From Promethearchaeota archaeon (GTDB lineage Archaea > Asgardarchaeota > Lokiarchaeia > Sigyniarchaeales > SOKP01): DNA of 64,000 nucleotides. The translations under genes were made by a program, and so were the position numbers. Positions 5,060-28,621 of the stretch are shown here, in pieces; within the stretch, counting starts at the first letter, position 1; each line of letters starts with the position of its first letter. The stretch covers positions 96,001 through 160,000 of the forward strand of contig JAHPZA010000003.1 in NCBI GenBank assembly GCA_019058445.1, written 5' to 3'. Below the pieces are notes generated by a model. The model had not been told where the DNA came from. It did not search any database and saw only the letters and a list, made by a program, of their open reading frames with translations.

Positions 5060-6574
5060 TTAGGAGATGTATCTTAAAAGTAAATCGCCAGTTCGATACA
5101 TAAAGTCGGGCATTAATTCATTTATCCTATCTTTTTTAATCTCATCATCCATTAAGAACAAGACAAAGAAATCATAATCTGCGATTCGTATTTTTTTAAA
5201 TAAGATTACGGAATCTGCAATTTTAAAAATAGATTCATCTTGCTTTAGAGCCCGAAATTCTGAAAAAATTTTATATAACATCGTAAATTGAGGTGCTGTA
5301 ATCTCAAAAATGTTTCTTAATTTACCATCATCAGCTTCCTCTCCAGGTGGTCGTATTTCTGATGATTTTAGCGCTTTCCATGAAAAAAAATCTGCTAATA
5401 CTAATCCCTCATTATTTAATAATAAAGATAAAGAAATATCTGCGCGGTTTGAAAATCTTTGGAGAATTAAATTAATTAATTTCCTATTAGGACTTAATTT
5501 TGAAATGCCCGAAGAAAAGGCTTGTAAAATACTAAAAATTGAAAATATACTGGTTATAAATATCTCAGGTTTCTTACTTGAGACAATCTCAATTAATTTT
5601 GCTTTTATATATTGAATATTTTCTTTAATTTCTTGGTTATTTACAATATCCTTATCTCCTTTAGAGAAAATAAATATAATAGGAGTATTCATCTTAAATT
5701 CTTTTAGCGCCACCATTATTTTTTGAAAATATTCAATACTTTCTTCAAATCGGGCTTTATTTTTAATATCAATAAAGTAAAAAAGGAGATCAGTTTCATA
5801 TAAATAAATTTGAGATTTTGTTAAATATTTTTGTCTCGAAGCTATTTGTCCACCTAAGTCCCATAAAAAAATAGAGGCTCCGAGTGCTTGTATGGATGTA
5901 ACATTAGCTCCTATAGTAGGTTTTAAACCGATTAGTTTAGAATATTTTCTATCAATAGACAATAAAAACGAGGTTTTCCCGCTGTCGTCAAGACCCGCAA
6001 AAACGACTTTAATTCTTGTTGCATGGGTAATTGGAGCGTATGGTTTTTTTTCTATTTCGATTAATTTTAAGAGTAAATCCTTAAAAAATGGTTCCATCAT
6101 TTCAGGAGATTTATACCCATTTGAAATTTCAAGATCCAATTTTAAGAGAAAGTTAAAGACCAGTGATTTAAGTTGAGTTAGATTATTATATAAAAAACTC
6201 CTCCTATTTCTATCAACCAGAATGGAAAAAGACGCGGCAGTGGGTTCCTTAGAGGTTTTAAATCTAATGAAATGAAAGATAGTCAAGGAAGTAAGATTAA
6301 AATCCGGAAACGGCAATATTGCAAAGTATGGTGCTTTATCTGGGTCCTTATGTAATTCGATATACTCTTGATCTCCAGCCATCATGCTTAGATTTTTTAT
6401 GGAAATCTGCGTATAATCTCTGTAGCTTAACTTAACTACATTTTCTAATTTTGATTGTTCTGCTTCTTCTTCAGAAACCTCTTTAGGAAACATATATATA
6501 GGTTGCGGACCAAATTTATCAAAAGCTGAAAAGAGAAGCCCTTCAATGACCGAATTTTCGATTAAATCTTCCAT
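5060..6574 (-). CDS. uDENN/longin - Rag/Arf-like small GTPase - roadblock fusion
   Basis: N-terminal FSAFDKFGPQP, G1 GLDDSGKTS, G3 WDLGGQ, atypical G4 SKGD, Rag-like TSIF..LSPN helix and C-terminal LLLNNEGLVLA. Confidence 0.8.
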   Translation of the reverse strand: MEDLIENSVIEGLLFSAFDKFGPQPIYMFPKEVSEEEAEQSKLENVVKLSYRDYTQISIKNLSMMAGDQEYIELHKDPDKAPYFAILPFPDFNLTSLTIFHFIRFKTSKEPTAASFSILVDRNRRSFLYNNLTQLKSLVFNFLLKLDLEISNGYKSPEMMEPFFKDLLLKLIEIEKKPYAPITHATRIKVVFAGLDDSGKTSFLLSIDRKYSKLIGLKPTIGANVTSIQALGASIFLWDLGGQIASRQKYLTKSQIYLYETDLLFYFIDIKNKARFEESIEYFQKIMVALKEFKMNTPIIFIFSKGDKDIVNNQEIKENIQYIKAKLIEIVSSKKPEIFITSIFSIFSILQAFSSGISKLSPNRKLINLILQRFSNRADISLSLLLNNEGLVLADFFSWKALKSSEIRPPGEEADDGKLRNIFEITAPQFTMLYKIFSEFRALKQDESIFKIADSVILFKKIRIADYDFFVLFLMDDEIKKDRINELMPDFMYRTGDLLLRYIS

Positions 6575-13212: not shown

Positions 13213-15747
13213 TTGAATATTATAGTATTGAGCTATTTTGATCATATTTTTGGTCCAAAAATATTTATGAAAACACCAAAATCATTTGATGATGAGGAAA
13301 TTAATCAAATTCCTGTACTCATTGATATGTATGAAGAAGGATTTTTTATTCACATATTTGGGGGATTTAAAAGTGCTAATTATTTTTTTGAAATAAATAG
13401 TCCTATTGCGCGTGGCGGTACTGAAAGATTACTTCTATCGATCTTAACAACAGAAGGAGAACTCAATCAAGAATTGTTAAAAGAATTATTAGAAAGATTT
13501 ATTAATGAAATACAGCAAATTCCAGACATTTATAGTGCATTTTATTCCACTAAAAACTCAGAAAATAAAGCTCAAGCGAAATATACCCAGTTAGATAATC
13601 TCATGAATACATTCTATGAGCATCTACCAAAAGATGTGGCTATCATTAAACGTCGTAAAGCGAAAATTTTTATATTCGGACCCTCTAAAGCAGGAAAAAC
13701 AACGATAATAAACTGTCTTCGAAACGAATTCGATAAAACCACACTACCTACAACTAGTATGAGCATCTCAAAATTACTTATTGGAAGTCTTGAATTTTTA
13801 ACTTATGATGTTCCTGGACAAACTAAATTTCAAAAATTGTGGCTCCCCTACTTAAAAAATCAAGATGGATTGGTGTTTGTTTTTGATATCACTGATAAAG
13901 AAAGATATGAAGAGGCAAAAGAAATGTTGCATCGAGTAGTCACTATGCCTCAAACAAAAAATTTACCATTACTCATCCTATTCAATAAAGTAGATTTAGG
14001 TACTCCTGATGTCTTATCTATTGAGAAAGCAGTCGGTATTCCTGAATTAGGAAAACGACATTTCAAATGTTTTCTCACAAGTGGTTTAATTAATGAAGGT
14101 GTGGCAGAAGCATTTGATTGGTTTGCTGAAACTATCGTAAATCGATTAATGCCTTCACGATTTACTGAAGTAAATTGCATATTTGCGAAATGGGATGAAG
14201 ATGAGGGGCCCCAGATAATTTCAGAATATCCTGCACATTCTTTTGAGGATGCTGAGAACGTTGCAATAGAGAGTTTTTCTTTATCTCAATTCGTATTTGG
14301 GGGAAAGGAATTCAAAAAAACCTCCTTTATTATGCCGTTTGTTCATTTGAATTCGAGGGCATCAATGCTGTTTGATTATATTCCCGATGAAAATGTTCGA
14401 GGAGGTAGATTACCACTTCTATTAGCTATTTTTTTCAATAATACAATTCCTATGCCTATCATTGAGCAATTTAATGTTTTTATTTTTGAGAAGTTTTCAT
14501 TGATTAAAAATAACTGGTCCCATATTCAAATTGTAGAAGAAAACCTTGAAGAAATAAGAAATGAAATTATAGAAAAATTAAAGAAAATTAAACCAACAGT
14601 TCATGCGATTAGAGTTGCTGAACGACGGTATGAATCACTCTTTAAAACAGCACGAGATGGAATCATAATTATTGATAGAAGACTCGGTATCATTGTTGAT
14701 GCTAATGAACAAGCAGAAATGATGTTAAAAAGTACAAAAGAAGATCTTATTGGGGCAAATATAAGTCAAATTCAGTCTGCTGATGAAAATATTGGGCTAA
14801 TGGATAGAATTCAGGAACAGCTTAACACTCTAAATAGTCCTCCTTTTATTTACTGGATTAAAGATATAGATTTAAAGTTTATTCCTGTAGAAATAAATGC
14901 TAGCCAGATTCAAATTGGTGGACAACATTTAATTCAATGCACTTTTAGAGATATAACAAATCGATTGAAAGCAGAAGAAGCACTAAAAGCAAGTGAAGAA
15001 CGACACAGAAGAATCGTCGAATTGAATCCTTTTCCCATCATTATTTTTTCCAAAGGAAACGTAGAATATGTGAATCCGATGTTTATCGAACTTTTTGGCT
15101 ATTCATTAGAAGATATTCCTACGGGAAGAGAATGGTCCCGTAAGGCTTATCCAAATCCAGAGTATAGACATAAGGTGATTGCTGCGTTTAAAAATTATGA
15201 GGAACACCCTTATGACCCGAACCTTGGAATTGATCCCTATACTTTTGATGTAACCTGTAAGGACGGAACTATACGTAGAATCATATTTAACCCTGTATAT
15301 ATCGATAAAGACAAGCAATTTTTCATTTGTGAGGATATCACTGAACGCATTACAGCACAGAAGGCTCAAAAGGAGAGCGAGGAAAAACATAGGCGTATTG
15401 TTGAATTGAATCCATTTCCCATCATTATTTTCTCCAAAGGAAACATAGAATATGTGAATCCGAAGTTCATCGAACTTTTTGGCTATTCATTAGAAAATAT
15501 ATCAACGGGAAGAGAATGGTCCCGTAAGGCTTATCCAGATCCAGAGTATAGACATAAAGTAATCGCCGCTTTTAAAAATTATGAGGAAAATCCTTATGAT
15601 CCAAGCCTAGGTGTTGATCCATATACTTTTAAAGTTACCTGCAAGAACGGTTCTATACGTAAAATCATTTTTAATCCTGTAAATATCGATAAAGATAAGC
15701 AATTTTTCATTTGTGAAGATATCACTGAGCGAATGAAGAGCATTTAA
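13213..15747 (+). CDS. uDENN/longin - Arf-like GTPase - uDENN/longin - 3x PAS fusion protein
   Basis: YFDHIFGPK (longin 1), GPSKAGKTT / DVPGQ / NKVD (GTPase), KWDEDEGPQ (longin 2), then three PAS/PAC units ending RDIT/EDIT; no kinase domain. Confidence 0.8.
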   Translation: MNIIVLSYFDHIFGPKIFMKTPKSFDDEEINQIPVLIDMYEEGFFIHIFGGFKSANYFFEINSPIARGGTERLLLSILTTEGELNQELLKELLERFINEIQQIPDIYSAFYSTKNSENKAQAKYTQLDNLMNTFYEHLPKDVAIIKRRKAKIFIFGPSKAGKTTIINCLRNEFDKTTLPTTSMSISKLLIGSLEFLTYDVPGQTKFQKLWLPYLKNQDGLVFVFDITDKERYEEAKEMLHRVVTMPQTKNLPLLILFNKVDLGTPDVLSIEKAVGIPELGKRHFKCFLTSGLINEGVAEAFDWFAETIVNRLMPSRFTEVNCIFAKWDEDEGPQIISEYPAHSFEDAENVAIESFSLSQFVFGGKEFKKTSFIMPFVHLNSRASMLFDYIPDENVRGGRLPLLLAIFFNNTIPMPIIEQFNVFIFEKFSLIKNNWSHIQIVEENLEEIRNEIIEKLKKIKPTVHAIRVAERRYESLFKTARDGIIIIDRRLGIIVDANEQAEMMLKSTKEDLIGANISQIQSADENIGLMDRIQEQLNTLNSPPFIYWIKDIDLKFIPVEINASQIQIGGQHLIQCTFRDITNRLKAEEALKASEERHRRIVELNPFPIIIFSKGNVEYVNPMFIELFGYSLEDIPTGREWSRKAYPNPEYRHKVIAAFKNYEEHPYDPNLGIDPYTFDVTCKDGTIRRIIFNPVYIDKDKQFFICEDITERITAQKAQKESEEKHRRIVELNPFPIIIFSKGNIEYVNPKFIELFGYSLENISTGREWSRKAYPDPEYRHKVIAAFKNYEENPYDPSLGVDPYTFKVTCKNGSIRKIIFNPVNIDKDKQFFICEDITERMKSI
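14992..15732 (+). repeat. Intragenic tandem duplication of a PAS domain (14992-15348 and 15376-15732, 384-bp period)
   Basis: SEE.HRRIVELNPFP...FFICEDITER occurs twice; about 14 substitutions in 119 aa by manual comparison. Confidence 0.95.
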
Positions 15748-15902: not shown

Positions 15903-16850
15903 TTGGAGTATCTAAAAGAAGAGAAAATAATCTCAAAAAAGATTCTATTTACCGGATTGGATGATGCGGGGAAGACATCAATCATTCTCGCCCTTCAGAG
16001 AGAGTTTTCTAAAGTTGCCAATATTCAGCCAACAAGAGGGGCACAAAGACGGATATTTCAATTCTTAGGAAAGGAAATCAGTGAATGGGATCTAGGTGGG
16101 CAAACAACGTACAGAATCTCTTATTTAAAAAATCCAGACAAATTTTTTGAGGGAACAGAAATCGCAATATATGTTGTAGATATACAGAATCGCGAGAGAT
16201 TAGCTGAATCGTTAAGCTATTTAAATGATGTGATAGTTGAGTTTAAAAAATTACAAATTAATCCTCCGATTAATATCTTTTTCCATAAATATGACCCAAC
16301 TTTAATAAAAGCTACAAAAGATGAATTAGAAACCCTCATCTTAAATCTAAAAAAAAAGATTAATAACATAATTAACTATAATAAACTTTATTTCTTTGAG
16401 ACATCAGTCTATAGTTTACCATCTATTATGAATGCTATGTCTGAGATATTATTGGAATTATATCCAAAATCGAGGCTGCTCAAAAAGACCATAGAGGAGT
16501 TTGCCATAAAATTAAACTGTCAAGGAATAGTAGTTATTGATAAAAATTCTCTTATCATTGGTTCCTTTTTTAAAGATCATGAAACGGGTGAGATACTGAC
16601 CAGATCTATGCCGTATTTCTTAACGCTAAATGATAGTTTTCAGTTAGAAGGGGTTAGCCAAAAGAATCAAGACCAAATGGTGGTTCATAGATTTGGAAAA
16701 TACTTTTTATTTAAAGAAATTTTATTGAAAGAAAGTGGCGTTCCTTATTACATTCTCATAGTTAAAGGAGATAATCCTTGGGATCTTTATTTCAGTAGTA
16801 AAGATTTTCGAGCATTTATTCAGATGCTAAGAGATATAATTTATAAATAA
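15903..16850 (+). CDS. Rag-like small GTPase with C-terminal roadblock domain (copy 1)
   Basis: GLDDAGKTS, QPT, WDLGGQ, His-type G4 FHKYD and ETSVY..MSEILLELYP; C-terminal IVVIDKNSLIIG. Confidence 0.85.
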   Translation: MEYLKEEKIISKKILFTGLDDAGKTSIILALQREFSKVANIQPTRGAQRRIFQFLGKEISEWDLGGQTTYRISYLKNPDKFFEGTEIAIYVVDIQNRERLAESLSYLNDVIVEFKKLQINPPINIFFHKYDPTLIKATKDELETLILNLKKKINNIINYNKLYFFETSVYSLPSIMNAMSEILLELYPKSRLLKKTIEEFAIKLNCQGIVVIDKNSLIIGSFFKDHETGEILTRSMPYFLTLNDSFQLEGVSQKNQDQMVVHRFGKYFLFKEILLKESGVPYYILIVKGDNPWDLYFSSKDFRAFIQMLRDIIYK

Positions 16851-16993: not shown

Positions 16994-17932
16994 TTGGAAT
17001 ATTTAAGAGATGAAAAAGCAGAAACCAGTAAAATATTGTTTTCGGGTCTTGACGATGCGGGGAAGACTAGCATTATCTTAGCACTTCAAAGAGAATTTGC
17101 TAAAATTGCTAATATTGAACCTACAAAAGGTGCCCAGAGAAGGATGTTCGAATTTTTAGGTAAAAATATAAGCGAATGGGATCTTGGTGGTCAACAAACC
17201 TATAGAATTGCGTATTTGAAGAATCCAACAAAATATTTCACAGAGACGGAAGTTTTAATTTACGTAATTGATATTAAAAATAAACAAAGAATTCAAGAAT
17301 GCTTAAGTTATCTCCAAGATGTCGTAAATGAGTTTAGAAAGCTCGAAATAGAACCCCCTATATTCATTTTATTTCATAAATATGACCCTGCTTTAAGCAG
17401 AAGTATCTATGAACAAATAGATAAAACGGTGTTATATTTAAAAAATAAAATCCTTAGTATTCCAAATTATAATCAATTTTACTTCCGAAATACTTCAATA
17501 TATAATTTATCGACTATTATTAGTGCTATGTCGGAAGCATTATTAGCATTATATCCGAAAACAGATTTAGTTCAAAAAACAATTTATGAATTTGGTATTA
17601 AATCTAAGGCAGATGGAATAGCAGTAATAGATTCTAATTCATTAATTATAGGCTGGTTTTATAGGAATGAAGGTATGAAAGATATATTACTCGCATCTGC
17701 CCCTTATTTCTTAAGTTTAAATACTAGCTTCGATTATACAGAAGGCATGGAAGGTAATAATGAAAATAAAATGGTTATTCAAAGACATGGAAAATATTTT
17801 CTCTTCAGAAAATTTTCCCTAAACGAAGACCTAGAGCCATTTTATTTATTAATTTCAAAAGATACTCCTGAAATTAATAAGGATGATTTTAATGCTTTGA
17901 TAAACATTTTAACAGAGATTTTATATAAATAG
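16994..17932 (+). CDS. Rag-like small GTPase with C-terminal roadblock domain (copy 2, tandem paralog)
   Basis: Same motifs (GLDDAGKTS, WDLGGQ, FHKYD, NTSIY..MSEALLALYP); co-linear with the preceding gene. Confidence 0.85.
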   Translation: MEYLRDEKAETSKILFSGLDDAGKTSIILALQREFAKIANIEPTKGAQRRMFEFLGKNISEWDLGGQQTYRIAYLKNPTKYFTETEVLIYVIDIKNKQRIQECLSYLQDVVNEFRKLEIEPPIFILFHKYDPALSRSIYEQIDKTVLYLKNKILSIPNYNQFYFRNTSIYNLSTIISAMSEALLALYPKTDLVQKTIYEFGIKSKADGIAVIDSNSLIIGWFYRNEGMKDILLASAPYFLSLNTSFDYTEGMEGNNENKMVIQRHGKYFLFRKFSLNEDLEPFYLLISKDTPEINKDDFNALINILTEILYK

Positions 17933-18026: not shown

Positions 18027-19118
18027 ATGATAATTTGTAGCAACTGTGGTGCTATTAATAGTGATGAAAACAGTAGATTTTGCAGAAAGTGCGGTGCCTT
18101 ACTACCTGTGATTGCTAAGCCTTCGAAAATTCGAATACCAGCCCCAGGTTCAATAAGGCAAGAGCAAAAAATTGAGACTCCTGCTGTTAAAAATACTAGC
18201 GAGAATAAGGCTAAAATTAAGAATTCTACCCAGAATATTCCTTATGTAAATAGACAAGCGGGATTCTTTACCCCAAAATTAAAAAAACAAGAAAAACCGA
18301 CTCAATTAGAATTGCAAGAAATCCCACAACCTCCAACACAACAAACTACTCCTAAACAATCTGAGATTCCCCCTAAAATTATTAACACAGAGAATCTTAA
18401 AAGTGATTTAACTCAAATTCCTATTAAGACTTCGGAGCCTATTGAAACTGGAAGAAAAGAATTACTTCGGGAAATTGCTCCAAAACCTTTCGATGGAACA
18501 ATAATGCCCTCTAAAACTATATATGGACCTCCAAAAAAAGAGATAGAAAAAAGCTTTAGCAAAAAAACGAAACCAACTGAGAAAAAAACAGACGATTCAT
18601 TTTTAAAACAAAAGCAGTTAGAAATAGATATGACAGACGTTTTAGCTGTTCTCTCAAAAAAGTTATCTATTTCAAGGGAAGAAAACTCCAAACTAAAACC
18701 TTCCAAAACTCAAGAGGTGGAAAAGGAGATTGTCCCCGCAAGTATGAGTGAGATTTTAACCCAGCTTTTAAATTTAGATAAGTTTATTGAAGCATCCGCA
18801 CTAATAAAAGCAGATGGGACAATACTTGCTTCGGCATTATCGAATAGGATTTCTGACTCTTTATTTTTAACCATTGGTCAGAATCTTACTATGATTGGAA
18901 CTGACATTATAGGAGGCCTAAGTGCTGGAAAACTAAGATCAATATCTATACGAGGTACTGAAGGAGTCTTTGATCTAGCGCCTATCGATAAAAAAATTCC
19001 AGAGTTGTCCGATATGATCCTTATGATCTTCAGTCATCCCAGAGTGAAACCGGGTATTATATCTTTTGCAGTAAATTTGGTTAAGAAACAAATTAAAGAG
19101 TATCTTGGAATTAAATAA
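18027..19118 (+). CDS. Zinc-ribbon + long P/K/E/Q-rich linker + C-terminal roadblock/LC7 domain protein
   Basis: N-terminal CSNCG..FCRKCG; C-terminal IEASALIKADGTILAS..SISIRGTEG..KPGII. Confidence 0.8.
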   Translation: MIICSNCGAINSDENSRFCRKCGALLPVIAKPSKIRIPAPGSIRQEQKIETPAVKNTSENKAKIKNSTQNIPYVNRQAGFFTPKLKKQEKPTQLELQEIPQPPTQQTTPKQSEIPPKIINTENLKSDLTQIPIKTSEPIETGRKELLREIAPKPFDGTIMPSKTIYGPPKKEIEKSFSKKTKPTEKKTDDSFLKQKQLEIDMTDVLAVLSKKLSISREENSKLKPSKTQEVEKEIVPASMSEILTQLLNLDKFIEASALIKADGTILASALSNRISDSLFLTIGQNLTMIGTDIIGGLSAGKLRSISIRGTEGVFDLAPIDKKIPELSDMILMIFSHPRVKPGIISFAVNLVKKQIKEYLGIK

Positions 19119-19219
19119 CATTTTTAACTATTAGTTTTAATTGAATTGTTTACTTTTTTTAATAATTAAAACCGATTATTATTATTGGATATAATTTGAT
19201 ACATAAAAATGGACATAAT

Positions 19220-19870
19220 ATGAGTATTCCAGATTTTATAAAAAATGAAACTACCGGATTATATAAGCATGAAAAAAGCTTTGACTCAATTCTCGGAAAG
19301 GAAAGAATAACAATATTCGTTCCTGAAAGGTTCAAAGTAAATGATTCATACTGGAACCAGTTCATACCAGATAATAAACTTCGACCAGCCTCTATTACTA
19401 AGGGAGAAAGAGAATATAAATATGTGGGTAAGGAGATTATTCACATCTCTTATGATTTAGAACCTAAGATCGAACAACGCCCTGATATTAGGAAAGTGTC
19501 TACTTGTCCCCACCCTAATTGTGTTTATTGCCTTCAAATCAAGAAATTAAAAACCCATTTTGAAAATGGAATTTATAGAACGATTAATGTTGGAGATTAT
19601 TTCTCATTTTCCGCAAACGCTAATCTAATCCAAGCTACGCTTTGGGTTGAACAAGGTAAAGCTCAAATTCATGCTTACGAGGGAAATAGAGTGTTTATGA
19701 AATCAGAGATTATAGATAAACATAATCCCGCGAGTGTTTCTTCATTTGGAAGGAGAACTTTGAGAACAATAAAGATTTACTCAATTCCAGATGAATCTGA
19801 ATTAGAAACGGATAATTTTACTCGGCTATGGGTCCATCTTAATCGCTATAATATTGAAAGTTGGCCCTAA
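19220..19870 (+). CDS. Hypothetical protein with CPHPNCVYC metal-binding motif
   Basis: Long ORF co-oriented with the cluster; no family recognised; ATG at 19220. Confidence 0.6.
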   Translation: MSIPDFIKNETTGLYKHEKSFDSILGKERITIFVPERFKVNDSYWNQFIPDNKLRPASITKGEREYKYVGKEIIHISYDLEPKIEQRPDIRKVSTCPHPNCVYCLQIKKLKTHFENGIYRTINVGDYFSFSANANLIQATLWVEQGKAQIHAYEGNRVFMKSEIIDKHNPASVSSFGRRTLRTIKIYSIPDESELETDNFTRLWVHLNRYNIESWP

Positions 19871-26434: not shown

Positions 26435-27838
26435 ATGACAAAAAATATTATTAAATCACTAATATTAAGCATTTTCGATGATGAGGGACCTACACCGAAA
26501 ATCTTTTGGCCTGAAAATTTGGATGAGGGTGCCAGACTTTTAATCGCTACTAAAACAATTAGCCTACTTATGGGTGATGTCATTTATCAAAATGGAGATA
26601 CTATCGATGATATAAATTATTTTGGGGTCCTTCCTTTCCCAGACTTAGGATTAAAAGCATTAACTTACTTCTTTTTAATCGCAGATGAAAATGCACGTGG
26701 AAATGCTATGGCTTCGACAATAACAGTTTTAATTGATGAGGAAAAATCAACCTTCTTTTATGAGAATATGAAATATTTGAGAGTGATAATTGATAAATCT
26801 GCTACAGAGATCCAAAATTGTGAAAAGGTTGAGGAATACCAAACCATTATGAATGCTCTAAGAGAGGAATTATTTGCCTTTTGTAATGACTTAAAAGATC
26901 CTTTTTCTTCACAAAGAAAAATCAAAGTGGTACTTGTTGGATTGGATAGAGCCGGTAAGACAAGTTTTCTCTTTGGAGTTAAGAAAAAATATTCTGAAAT
27001 CATAAAAACTTTACCCACTAAGGGAGTAGAGAGATCTGAAGAGACTATTTTTGAGGAACAAAATTCTCATATTTCAATATGGGATTTAGGAGGTCAAAAA
27101 AGATATCGTGAAAAATACCTGGAACAAAGCAAACTCTATCTTTATAATATAGATTTATTATTTTATCTAATTGATATTCAAGATTTTAGGAGAATGATGG
27201 ATTCAGTAGAACTTTTTTCAAATATCATTGAATCTTTGAAGGAACTAGATGAATACCCTCCGATTGTTATATGCTTGAATAAATACGATCCTGATATTAA
27301 AGGCACTGAAGAAATTAATAAAAATGTTGAAATAATTACATCTCAAATTGAAAGAAAAGCCGAAAAATTTTTCATTAAAATTTTTAAGACTTCCATCTTT
27401 GACTATTGGTCTCTCATTTCAGCATATTCTTACGGACTTTCTCAGTTGAGTCCCAATAGAGATTTCTTTAAAAATAGATTGAAAATATTTGCTGATAATA
27501 CTGATGCTGATGCATTATTATTACTAAATGAGAATGGTATAATCTTGTCCAGCTATTCCAAGAAGGAGATTCCAAGCAAGGTTTTCGAGATTTCTGCTCC
27601 ACACTTTCAGACTCTATATAAAACATTTAAAGAATTTCAACTTTTAAAAAATGATTATATTATCTCGTCTGGTTTGAAAACAGATTCAAAAAACATTATT
27701 TTTAAAAAAATTCAAGTTAATAAATATACTTTATATTTACTATTGTTCATGGAAGAGTACCATAGCATTGAGAAAATCGAAAAATTTTTACCAAATTTTT
27801 CCAATATTCTGACAGAACTAATAAGTTCTTACATTTAA
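26435..27838 (+). CDS. uDENN/longin - Rag-like GTPase - roadblock fusion
   Basis: SIFDDEGPTP, IADENARG, GLDRAGKTS, WDLGGQ, NKYD, KTSIFDYWSL..LSPN and LLLNENGIILS. Paralog of 5060..6574. Confidence 0.85.
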   Translation: MTKNIIKSLILSIFDDEGPTPKIFWPENLDEGARLLIATKTISLLMGDVIYQNGDTIDDINYFGVLPFPDLGLKALTYFFLIADENARGNAMASTITVLIDEEKSTFFYENMKYLRVIIDKSATEIQNCEKVEEYQTIMNALREELFAFCNDLKDPFSSQRKIKVVLVGLDRAGKTSFLFGVKKKYSEIIKTLPTKGVERSEETIFEEQNSHISIWDLGGQKRYREKYLEQSKLYLYNIDLLFYLIDIQDFRRMMDSVELFSNIIESLKELDEYPPIVICLNKYDPDIKGTEEINKNVEIITSQIERKAEKFFIKIFKTSIFDYWSLISAYSYGLSQLSPNRDFFKNRLKIFADNTDADALLLLNENGIILSSYSKKEIPSKVFEISAPHFQTLYKTFKEFQLLKNDYIISSGLKTDSKNIIFKKIQVNKYTLYLLLFMEEYHSIEKIEKFLPNFSNILTELISSYI

Positions 27839-27940: not shown

Positions 27941-28621
27941 ATGTTAAAAAGTATTTTTGGAATAGTTCTAATCTTGATCTACAAAGTTTATTTAATAGAT
28001 GCTGATAATGGAATATCTTTATTGGAATTCACCTTTAAGGAATTTAAAAAATCCGTCTCAACAATACAAGATGAAATTTTGGCGGCTTTTTTTAGTGTAA
28101 TAAACAGGATGATTGATGATGTTCAAGAAGGTATGGCAAAAGGAAGAAGGGTCAATGAAATGACTCGAGTTGTTGAATCTGAGGAATCAACGATAGTTAT
28201 ATATTTTCATCCCTTATCCAGAGTACTTTTTTGCTCCATATCTGATGCTGATGATGATGTTGAGAAACTTAAGCGTTGCATCCACAAAATAGGGAACCGT
28301 TTTTGGAAGAAACATCAAAGTGATCTTAAAGTGTATAGAACAACAACCGAAAAGCATAGATTTAAGGCTTATAAGGCCGAAATTGAGAATTTAAGCCTTG
28401 GAGGGCGGATTGCAGAAGTGTTTCCTAAAGTATTAATCATGAAATCTGTGCTCGATAAAATCTTGAGTATGGGTATGATTAATGAGTTTGAACTCAAAGT
28501 TGCTTTACAATGTAACGGGGAAAACTCTCCTCTTAAAATTTCAAGGTTATTAGAAAAATCCAGAAATGAAATCAATGATGTTCTTAAAAAACTACAGGAA
28601 TTAGATATTATAAGAATGTAA
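27941..28621 (+). CDS. Longin-domain protein with C-terminal winged helix
   Basis: KVYLIDADNGISLL..EILAAFFSVI (longin-like); CNGENSPLKISRLL..VLKKLQELDII (wHTH). Start could be the TTG about 30 nt downstream. Confidence 0.65.
   Translation: MLKSIFGIVLILIYKVYLIDADNGISLLEFTFKEFKKSVSTIQDEILAAFFSVINRMIDDVQEGMAKGRRVNEMTRVVESEESTIVIYFHPLSRVLFCSISDADDDVEKLKRCIHKIGNRFWKKHQSDLKVYRTTTEKHRFKAYKAEIENLSLGGRIAEVFPKVLIMKSVLDKILSMGMINEFELKVALQCNGENSPLKISRLLEKSRNEINDVLKKLQELDIIRM

Follow-up and report, generated by a model that had tools for sequence, protein, structure and literature searches.

A kinase-less Asgard signalling protein with an Arf-like GTPase between two longin domains, a candidate GTPase carrying its own regulator

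Introduction

Longin domains of the GTPase-activating protein (GAP) class, known from C9orf72-SMCR8, FLCN, NPRL2 and an Asgard class, carry a Gly-Pro (GP) pair before strand 2 and an adjacent arginine finger, and C9orf72 requires a W33-D34 pair just upstream of its G38-P39 (PMC12290439). The combination of GP and Arg is reported to be confined to GAP-type longins and to be missing from the longins of TRAPP, adaptins and DENND proteins (PMC12290439). Asgard longins of the GAP type, with GP and arginine finger, have been found, their client GTPases being left open (Traffic 2025, PMC12290439). Zhu et al. (2025) described longin N-termini on some Asgard Arfs and did not find a native Arf GAP, and a structure-based search for C9orf72-SMCR8-like candidates came back empty (PMC11914678). 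The native GAPs as well as guanine nucleotide exchange factors of Asgard Arf-like GTPases are reported as unknown. The protein described here, P0001, is encoded at 13213..15747 (+ strand) of a 64,000 nt stretch of DNA from a Promethearchaeota archaeon (contig JAHPZA010000003.1, positions 96,001 to 160,000; the whole stretch is referred to below as the window). It carries an Arf-like GTPase between two longin domains, followed by an array of PAS domains, and is a candidate GTPase carrying its own regulator, so that the fusion names a candidate regulator and its client at once.

Multidomain GTPases with longin-G, G-roadblock and longin-G-roadblock architectures have been described in MK-D1 (Tran et al. 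2024, PMC10933270). Liu et al. reported NPRL2-like longins fused to two-component domains, mentioned the family to which P0001 belongs in general terms, and put forward the idea that Asgard archaea control growth by coupling regulators of eukaryotic type to two-component systems. A literature search returned no paper joining Asgard, small GTPase, histidine kinase and longin, and no description of an Arf-like GTPase between two GAP-type longins was found in the text of the literature, figures not being covered. P0001 is a kinase-less variant of this partly described Asgard family.

Results

Domain organisation of P0001

The P0001 gene is a single open reading frame (ORF) of 844 aa with a TTG start and a TAA stop. 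The TTG start is correctly placed, since homologues start at the equivalent residue. Along the protein, a longin (residues 1-146), an Arf-family GTPase (147-312) and a second longin (313-450) are followed by three PAS domains and the stop. The window has a G+C content of about 30%, the genome carrying P0001 amounts to 4.6 Mb in 10 contigs, and the DNA is present in sediment metagenomes. The sequencing runs listed for it are all of metagenomic DNA, from sediment and soil, with no RNA run among them. The archaeon is of the Asgard (Loki/Promethearchaeota) type, and P0001 is one of its soluble signalling proteins.

An initial annotation, made from the sequence without database searches, had described a GTPase between two flanking domains, connected to three PAS domains and without a kinase. 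Pfam, TIGR00229 and motif matches bear this out, and the motif positions it gave are right: G1, G3 and G4 of an Arf-like GTPase, an RG loop in each flanking domain (SPIARGG with R67, DENVRGG with R396), and the C-terminal EDITERMKSI directly before the stop codon.

The central GTPase domain

The Arf-family domain (residues 147-312) is encoded at 13651..14148 (+). Pfam Arf spans residues 146-307 with an E value of 1.6e-33 and 116 bits, compared with 57 bits for Ras and 29.7 bits for Gtr1_RagA (cut-off 22). All five G motifs are present: G1 GPSKAGKT (156-163), the switch-I PTT (179-181), G3 DVPGQ (199-203), G4 NKVD (258-261) and G5 TSG (289-291), and they are invariant or nearly so across the P0001 family. 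The catalytic switch-II Gln is Gln203, within DVPGQ. The top folds returned by Foldseek for this domain of the AlphaFold2 model were Arf6, Arf1, Arl3 and the Asgard protein GerdArfR1, with template modelling (TM) scores of about 0.9 by target. Among the 85 small-GTPase loci of the genome, the Arf profile is matched best by the P0001 paralogue P0019, at 140 bits, and next by P0001, at 120 bits; all other loci lie well below, none exceeding 88 bits. Arfs couple the binding of GTP to that of membranes through an amphipathic, often myristoylated N-terminal helix. The model shows no such helix directly before strand 1 of the G domain, this place being occupied by the longin and a long helix.

Two longin domains flank the GTPase

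Domain 1 (residues 1-146; 13213..13650, +) and domain 2 (residues 313-450; 14149..14562, +) both show longin topology in the AlphaFold2 model of residues 1-450, namely strand-strand-helix-strand-strand-strand-helix-helix, lacking the leading helix of roadblock domains. The elements of domain 1 in this model are E2-10, E14-21, H28-39, E44-49, E52-62, E70-79, H86-101 and H114-136. Domain 2 modelled alone reached a predicted local distance difference test score (pLDDT) of 87.9 and a predicted TM score (pTM) of 0.85, and was compared with about 48,000 solved chains by a VIA fold search. The top hit is 8yqg, a Lokiarchaeal protein made up of roadblock and longin, whose longin superposes with Z 14.4 over 126 residues (rmsd, or root-mean-square deviation, 2.5). 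Next come longins of eukaryotic GAP complexes: Lst4 (Z 11.5), the FLCN-FNIP2 chains 6nzd_H (11.5) and 6ulg_N (10.9), NPRL2 (8fw5_B, 10.8), chain 8adl_S of the yeast SEA complex (10.3) and C9orf72-SMCR8 (7o2w_A, 9.8), with Npr2/3 also in this range. Generic longins and roadblocks rank below these (Z 8-9), and Mon1-Ccz1, CPLANE and DENND1 are also among the matches (Z 8-10). The order of matches given by Foldseek for domain 2 agrees with that of VIA. In the ESM-Atlas, domain 2 matches a eukaryotic SMCR8 cluster (TM 0.78), NPR2 clusters (0.69-0.71) and a Heimdall cluster (0.79) in which 23% of the members carry Pfam Folliculin. By its predicted structure, domain 2 is thus a longin fold of the FLCN/SMCR8/NPRL2 type. 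An identity as a roadblock domain, as in the Rag-like layout of a G domain followed by a roadblock, was considered and set aside: roadblocks score Z 8-9 compared with 10-14 for longins, and the N-terminal helix is lacking.

The two flanking domains are homologous to one another as judged by profile comparison. Aligned by hhalign over 108 columns, they place GP over GP and Arg-Gly-Gly over Arg-Gly-Gly, and a profile of domain-1 relatives matches all 38 of 38 domain-2 sequences, with a best E value of 1.8e-8. On the topology of its model and this homology to domain 2, domain 1 is likewise a longin. Foldseek on the 1-450 model was uninformative about the longins, the list being taken up by Arf-family matches. 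Pfam gave no significant match to residues 1-146 or 313-450 of P0001, and, across every member of the domain alignments, no family common to more than four members. Profile searches of PDB sequences with domain 1, domain 2, the wide family and the strand core returned only non-significant or spurious matches, such as designed coiled coils and FliG.

The two flanking domains had initially been named uDENN domains. Their longin fold stands, by topology in both and in domain 2 also by the Z scores of 10-14; the uDENN name does not. The Pfam scan of P0001 found no DENN or dDENN part after either longin (the G domain comes next after domain 1, and PAS1 after domain 2), so that the label should read FLCN/SMCR8/NPRL2-type longin.

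Conserved Gly-Pro and Arg-Gly signatures

Each longin carries the two elements of the GAP-type signature. In domain 1, F9-x4-G14-P15 lies before strand 2 and R67-G68 in the strand 4-5 loop; in domain 2, the corresponding residues are W327-D328-x3-G332-P333 and R396-G397-G398. Arg67, which in domain 1 is the candidate arginine finger, is encoded at 13411..13413 (+) and Arg396, in the Arg-Gly-Gly loop of domain 2, at 14398..14400 (+). The WDxxxGP spacing of domain 2 is the same as that reported for W33-D34 and G38-P39 of C9orf72 (PMC12290439).

The profile of domain 1 gathers no fewer than 514 cluster representatives (E <= 1e-3), a family which includes stand-alone longins, longin-GTPase fusions and giant proteins of up to 2317 aa. 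Across 103 diverse relatives of domain 1, the Phe, GP and Arg-Gly occur jointly in 87, and GP is at least 90% conserved. In domain 2, W327 and G332 are invariant, and conservation reaches at least 90% for D328, R396 and G397; of its GP pair, only the Gly is invariant across the family.

A longin of the domain-1 type, with GP and Arg-Gly, also begins giant proteins of 1772-2317 aa and is found at the C-terminus of proteins of 460-610 aa (P0086, P0110, P0114, P0178, P0184, P0201, P0204, P0210, P0221 and P0223 have it in one or other of these settings). This type of longin is thus a mobile module that has many partners.

Distribution and variation across Asgard archaea

About 80 homologues align to residues 1-445 of P0001 at 37-49% identity, and one, P0003, at 88%. 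All of the relatives found are Asgard, with source names including Promethearchaeota, Lokiarchaeota, Thor-, Hod-, Odin-, Heimdall-, Hermod- and Sigynarchaeota. Most are 830-1125 residues long and continue through PAS-PAS-(GAF) into a HATPase_c or kinase-like tail; others, of 483-499 aa, match only GTPase-type Pfam families and have neither PAS nor kinase. The conserved core of the family is longin - Arf-like GTPase - longin - PAS, and P0001 is a kinase-less member. The paralogue P0019 (967 aa; G000:C3:660837-663108, on the same contig as P0001 and about 550 kb away) has a core of the P0001 type and a pseudo-kinase tail.

The switch-II Gln is present in 35 of the 82 homologues, and Arg67 is kept in all 35; in the 22 members retaining both GP and this Gln, Arg67 is invariant. 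About half of the family has lost Arg67 and the catalytic Gln together. The class of 1103-1125 aa (about 40 sequences) has Pro-Pro for Gly-Pro, Lys, Asn, Gly or Thr for Arg67, and Lys for the catalytic Gln ('PGK'). In intermediate lineages, the GP, or the Gly that follows Arg67, is gone and the Gln is retained. Loss of the Gln is confined to lineages with a degraded longin signature, in the GP or Arg-Gly of domain 1 or, in P0082, in the Arg-Gly-Gly of domain 2. The pattern is suggestive of domain 1 and its GP/Arg surface working together with the GTPase active site. Domain 2 behaves differently: Arg396 is found in 80 of the 82 homologues, as is the WD...G motif, whatever the state of the G domain.

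Variation is also seen in the kinase-like tails (among them those of P0009, P0013, P0019 and P0021-P0076). An H-box of the form YKELFxHDIN occurs in some members, e.g., P0010, P0012 and P0016, whereas most kinase-bearing members, including P0019 and the whole 1103-1125-aa class, have Asn for the phospho-accepting His (in most as ...LFxNDIN...). In a minority, the His is retained and accompanied by an N-box, a DNGIGI G1 box or the two combined, with P0010 and P0012 having the two. Loss of the His largely overlaps loss of the switch-II Gln, but not fully, as P0017, P0022 and P0040 have the His and no Gln. In another Lokiarchaeal metagenome-assembled genome, two family members, P0083 (957 aa) and P0010 (971 aa), are tandem neighbours (L007:861-6916), and P0083 has lost the Arg-Gly-Gly of domain 2.

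The PAS array and the missing kinase

The three PAS domains of P0001 lie at residues ~469-591 (PAS1; 14617..14985, +), ~596-716 (PAS2; 14998..15360, +) and ~724-844 (PAS3; 15382..15744, +). TIGR00229 matches the protein in three stretches with 141.9 bits, and PAS_9, PAS_8 and PAS match in three stretches each, all above the curated cut-off. Individual assignments include TIGR00229 469-591 and PAS_9 482-582 for PAS1, PAS_3 619-689 for PAS2 and PAS_8 724-773 for PAS3. A conserved helical linker joins domain 2 to PAS1, and this linker and PAS1 together are 45% identical between P0001 and its paralogue P0019. PAS2 and PAS3 are the first and second copies of a tandem duplication, visible in the DNA as a direct repeat (14950-15249 and 15334-15633) with 82% nucleotide identity over 300 nt and a period of 384 nt. 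The two copies have diverged to a synonymous distance (dS) of 0.79, with a ratio of nonsynonymous to synonymous change (dN/dS) of 0.11, and both are under purifying selection. P0003 has a single copy where P0001 has PAS2 and PAS3.

No HisKA, HATPase_c, H-box, N-box or G1-box was detected in P0001 by Pfam or by pattern scan, and the protein terminates 2 residues past the last PAS core. The initial annotation had the protein ending right after its last PAC motif with no kinase gene following, and the next gene is indeed one for a Rag-like GTPase. The orthologue P0003, from a different metagenome (contig L001), shares 86% identity and the gene order with P0001 and stops 2-3 residues after its last PAS. 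Comparison of the pair gives a dN/dS of 0.085 overall; by domain, the values are 0.13, 0.05 and 0.05 along the core, and 0.17 and 0.05 in the two PAS domains that both proteins have. The kinase-less form is maintained by purifying selection and, given the shared end point in a separate metagenome together with this low dN/dS, is not a truncation artefact. Close and distant homologues differ in this respect: P0003, the closest, stops after its last PAS as P0001 does, while those at 37-49% identity mostly carry a kinase-like module. Not all close homologues, then, run on into a kinase, which was the outcome that the initial annotation had named as pointing to a truncation. Kinase output is dispensable in the family, as seen from the 483-499-aa forms, from the Asn in place of the phospho-accepting His, and from the low dN/dS of the kinase-less pair. 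The description of P0001 as a one-component system, also proposed at the outset, fits loosely.

Gene neighbourhood

Two Rag-like GTPase genes lie downstream of P0001 on the same strand. The first (15903..16850, +; 315 aa, Gtr1_RagA 7e-25) begins after 155 nt and is a candidate partner or target of P0001; the second (16994..17932, +; 312 aa) is 58% identical to the first. Against PDB sequences, they match 8yl2 ('GTP-binding protein') with E values of 3.5e-87 and 6.7e-80, and 8zla/9m28 (titled Lokiarchaeal Rag-like GTPase; LokiRagM) with 1e-30 and 3e-27. The two neighbours look like a candidate Rag-type heterodimer pair. They are followed by genes for a protein with an N-terminal zinc ribbon (18027-19118, +; 363 aa) and for a 224-aa protein to which no family was matched (19196-19870, +); Pfam and the longin profiles give no sign of a roadblock in either. 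The P0001 gene and the Rag-like pair are arranged alike in the orthologous contig L001, and so are the two genes behind them, whose equivalents there encode 363 and 216 aa. The spacers downstream of P0001 measure 94-155 nt and contain T-runs and TATA-like boxes, suggesting separate transcription units, and an operon of P0001 with the Rag-like genes was set aside on these grounds.

Elsewhere in the family, neighbouring genes vary. The gene for P0019 is head-to-head with a Gtr1/RagA-like gene, that for P0027 has an Arf/Rag-like gene 73 nt upstream, P0037 is adjoined by a roadblock gene, and P0010 lies after its tandem paralogue. No separate GTPase neighbour was found at the loci of P0013, P0016, P0079, P0015 and P0022. 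Overall, a separate GTPase gene is adjacent in 3 of 10 independent loci, compared with about 4% expected from gene frequency. Small GTPases make up about 2% of the genes (85 loci in 4.6 Mb) and are clustered in this genome, so the true baseline lies above the one calculated from gene frequency; a functional link of P0001 to its Rag-like neighbours counts as a lead only.

Two further regions of the window encode multidomain GTPases. A 467-aa protein (26435-27838, +) has a paralogous N-terminal longin and a Gtr1/RagA-like G domain; the profiles of both domains match this longin (E 1e-5 to 2e-7), and Pfam Folliculin matches it below the cut-off, at 5.8e-4. Next to it is a gene for a 226-aa protein with a weak winged-helix tail (27941-28621, +). 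A 504-aa protein on the other strand (5060-6574, -) has a Gtr1/RagA-like G domain (Pfam 6.9e-21), and is matched by the domain-1 profiles weakly and in its first 40 residues only. Scans of the window with Rfam and for tRNA genes gave no match.

Discussion

The arrangement of P0001 is best explained by the two longins forming a built-in regulator of the central GTPase, likely a GAP platform, with the PAS domains tuning it and the nucleotide state as output. This explanation is favoured tentatively, our confidence in it falling somewhat short of an even balance. The longin pair would act on the Arf-like domain in the manner of SMCR8-C9orf72, FLCN-FNIP or NPRL2-NPRL3. Arg67 of domain 1 would complete the active site together with Gln203, and the WD/Arg-Gly-Gly face of domain 2 would hold the switch region, whether within a single chain or between the chains of a dimer. 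How readily this occurs would be set by the PAS domains. The output would then be the nucleotide state of P0001 as read by partner proteins, not phosphotransfer, and the two adjacent Rag-like GTPases are candidates for such partners.

Several points weigh against a built-in GAP. In the AlphaFold2 model of residues 1-450, the pTM of 0.46 makes the arrangement of the three domains unreliable, so that both an intramolecular longin-longin dimer and an Arg close to the nucleotide are hypothetical. Complex prediction from the domain 1 and domain 2 alignments, run without controls, gave a score of 0.01 and is evidence neither way. The linkers are short: some 10 residues separate domain 1 from the G domain (pLDDT below 50 at 143-146), and some 7 lie between the final helix of the G domain and domain 2. 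Action across a dimer is on this account as plausible as action in cis, and may be favoured. The association of Arg67 with Gln203 involves about four changes of the Gln on a tree built without the columns tested, and is not significant by a sign test (p 0.25-1). The divergent P0082 has lost the Gln and the Arg of domain 2 and kept Arg67. Arg396 persists in members whose G domain has lost the Gln, so that the role of domain 2 may be another one than catalysis of hydrolysis by the internal G domain. At the level of sequence, the links to the eukaryotic GAP longins are not significant: NPRL2 chains match the wider domain-1 family over strand1-GP-strand2 with an E value of about 0.3, and Pfam Folliculin matches isolated family members only, below threshold (E 0.003-0.2). 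Longin/roadblock pairs in general are mostly platforms or exchange factors (PMC10933270), and among longin pairs exchange factors are commoner than GAPs.

The same conservation of Arg396 and the WD motif in proteins without the catalytic Gln could also mean that the longin pair acts in trans, as a GAP or regulator of separate GTPases, chiefly the downstream Rag-like pair, with the internal Arf-like domain serving for regulation or docking. FLCN-FNIP and GATOR1, which act on the Rag heterodimer, provide a model for this, and the two same-strand Rag-like genes beside P0001 and in L001, the GTPase neighbours at 3 of 10 loci (including those of P0019 and P0027) and the roadblock gene next to P0037 are in line with it. 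However, the synteny is not conserved, the five loci named above having no such neighbour; GTPase genes cluster anyway in this genome, the spacers point to separate transcription units, and the simplest client for the flanking regulators is the G domain permanently fused to them. We regard action in trans as rather unlikely. A non-catalytic role for the longins, as a dimerisation or scaffold surface or as an exchange-factor-like surface of the kind seen in Mon1-Ccz1, TRAPP and DENN, with structural Arg-Gly loops, would also account for the persistence of Arg396. It would agree with the prevalence of platforms and exchange factors among longin/roadblock pairs, with the fold matches to Mon1-Ccz1, CPLANE and DENND1, and with the nearest solved structure, 8yqg, being a longin homodimer. 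Nevertheless, the best eukaryotic matches are longins of GAP complexes, the GP and Arg signature is reported to distinguish GAP-type longins from the others, and the near-invariance of an Arg-Gly in a surface loop among 103 diverse relatives goes beyond what a scaffold usually needs; non-catalytic longins are decidedly unlikely.

The remaining two explanations concern the lack of a kinase. P0001 might modulate its kinase-bearing relatives, pairing with P0019 through the linker and PAS1 or through the longins and so tuning or blocking signalling by P0019. PAS domains commonly dimerise, P0019 is encoded on the same contig with a shared core and a kinase-like module, and the linker and PAS1 of the two proteins are similar. 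This similarity, however, is no predictor of hetero-pairing, the genes are far apart, and the H-box of P0019 reads ...FANDMS..., with Asn for the phospho-His, so that there may be no phosphorelay to modulate; such a role is improbable. That P0001 is a decaying, truncated remnant of a longin-Arf-longin-PAS-kinase gene, or an artefact of assembly, might be suspected from the more distant homologues, most of which continue into a kinase-like module. This is largely refuted and highly improbable: the same end occurs in the independent assembly carrying P0003, the ORF is intact and followed by 155 nt of non-coding DNA, and the low dN/dS extends to the last shared PAS and to the two PAS copies.

Returning to the longins as a built-in regulator, the core of P0001 offers a compact, soluble construct of 450 residues suited to testing arginine-finger catalysis by longins. 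P0001 is a better member for such a test than its 1123-aa relatives, because it keeps every candidate catalytic residue while they have lost Arg67 and Gln203. If the explanation is true, control of GTPases of the FLCN/GATOR1/C9orf72 type predates eukaryogenesis and was tied to prokaryote-style PAS sensing. A more far-reaching proposal, to which we assign a low probability, sees in the longin-Arf-longin core a forerunner, made as a single chain, of the longin GAP complexes of eukaryotes. In this forerunner an SMCR8/FLCN/NPRL2-like longin would give Arg67 and a C9orf72-like longin the WD/GP face, both acting on the Arf-like GTPase that they enclose, under control of the PAS domains and signalling to the Rag-like pair. 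The pairing of GAP longins with Arf/Rag GTPases for environmental or nutrient sensing would then have arisen before eukaryotes, and the missing native regulator of Asgard Arf-family GTPases would be supplied.

Comparison with known systems

The closest relatives of P0001 are the Asgard longin-Arf-longin-PAS-(GAF)-histidine-kinase-like proteins, which share its first 445 residues (37-49% identity), motifs, linker and PAS1. P0001 and P0003 differ from them in having no kinase-like module and a different second PAS, duplicated in P0001, and P0001 differs from the 1103-1125-aa class in retaining GP, Arg67 and Gln203. The G domain of P0001 resembles GerdArfR1 (8oum; Vargova et al.), with a TM score of 0.89 by target, 33% identity and intact G motifs. 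Unlike GerdArfR1, P0001 has a longin in place of the N-terminal amphipathic helix, and a membrane switch of the Arf kind is for this reason not expected.

P0001 has an Arf/Rag-like G domain preceded by a longin and followed by a member of the roadblock/longin superfamily, and in this it is similar to the multidomain GTPases of MK-D1 (PMC10933270) and to the longin-bearing Asgard Arfs (PMC11914678). It is distinguished from them by its C-terminal domain, which is a longin (no N-terminal helix, two C-terminal helices) and a paralogue of the N-terminal one, and its PAS array has no counterpart discussed in either study. With the stand-alone Asgard longins of the FLCN/SMCR8 type (PMC12290439) it shares the signature, and the domain-1 family itself includes many stand-alone forms of 140-200 aa; in P0001, by contrast, the longins are fused on either side of an Arf-like GTPase and joined to PAS sensors.

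The initial annotation had linked the flanking domains to FLCN-FNIP, NPRL2-NPRL3 and C9orf72-SMCR8. The fold and the GP/Arg signature uphold this link, while the sequence similarity is not significant. Like C9orf72-SMCR8 (an Arf1 GAP), FLCN-FNIP2 and Lst7-Lst4 (RagC/Gtr2 GAPs) and NPRL2-NPRL3 of GATOR1 (a RagA/Gtr1 GAP), P0001 has the longin fold, a GP turn before strand 2, an Arg in the strand 4-5 loop, and two different longins per GTPase of the Arf/Rag type. It has none of their additional parts, i.e., DENN domains or the partners WDR41, DEPDC5 and Ragulator. Where the eukaryotic pairs have one catalytic subunit, both longins of P0001 carry an Arg, and where they are separate complexes with known GAP activity, P0001 brings the longins and the GTPase, with a putative GAP activity, together in one polypeptide.

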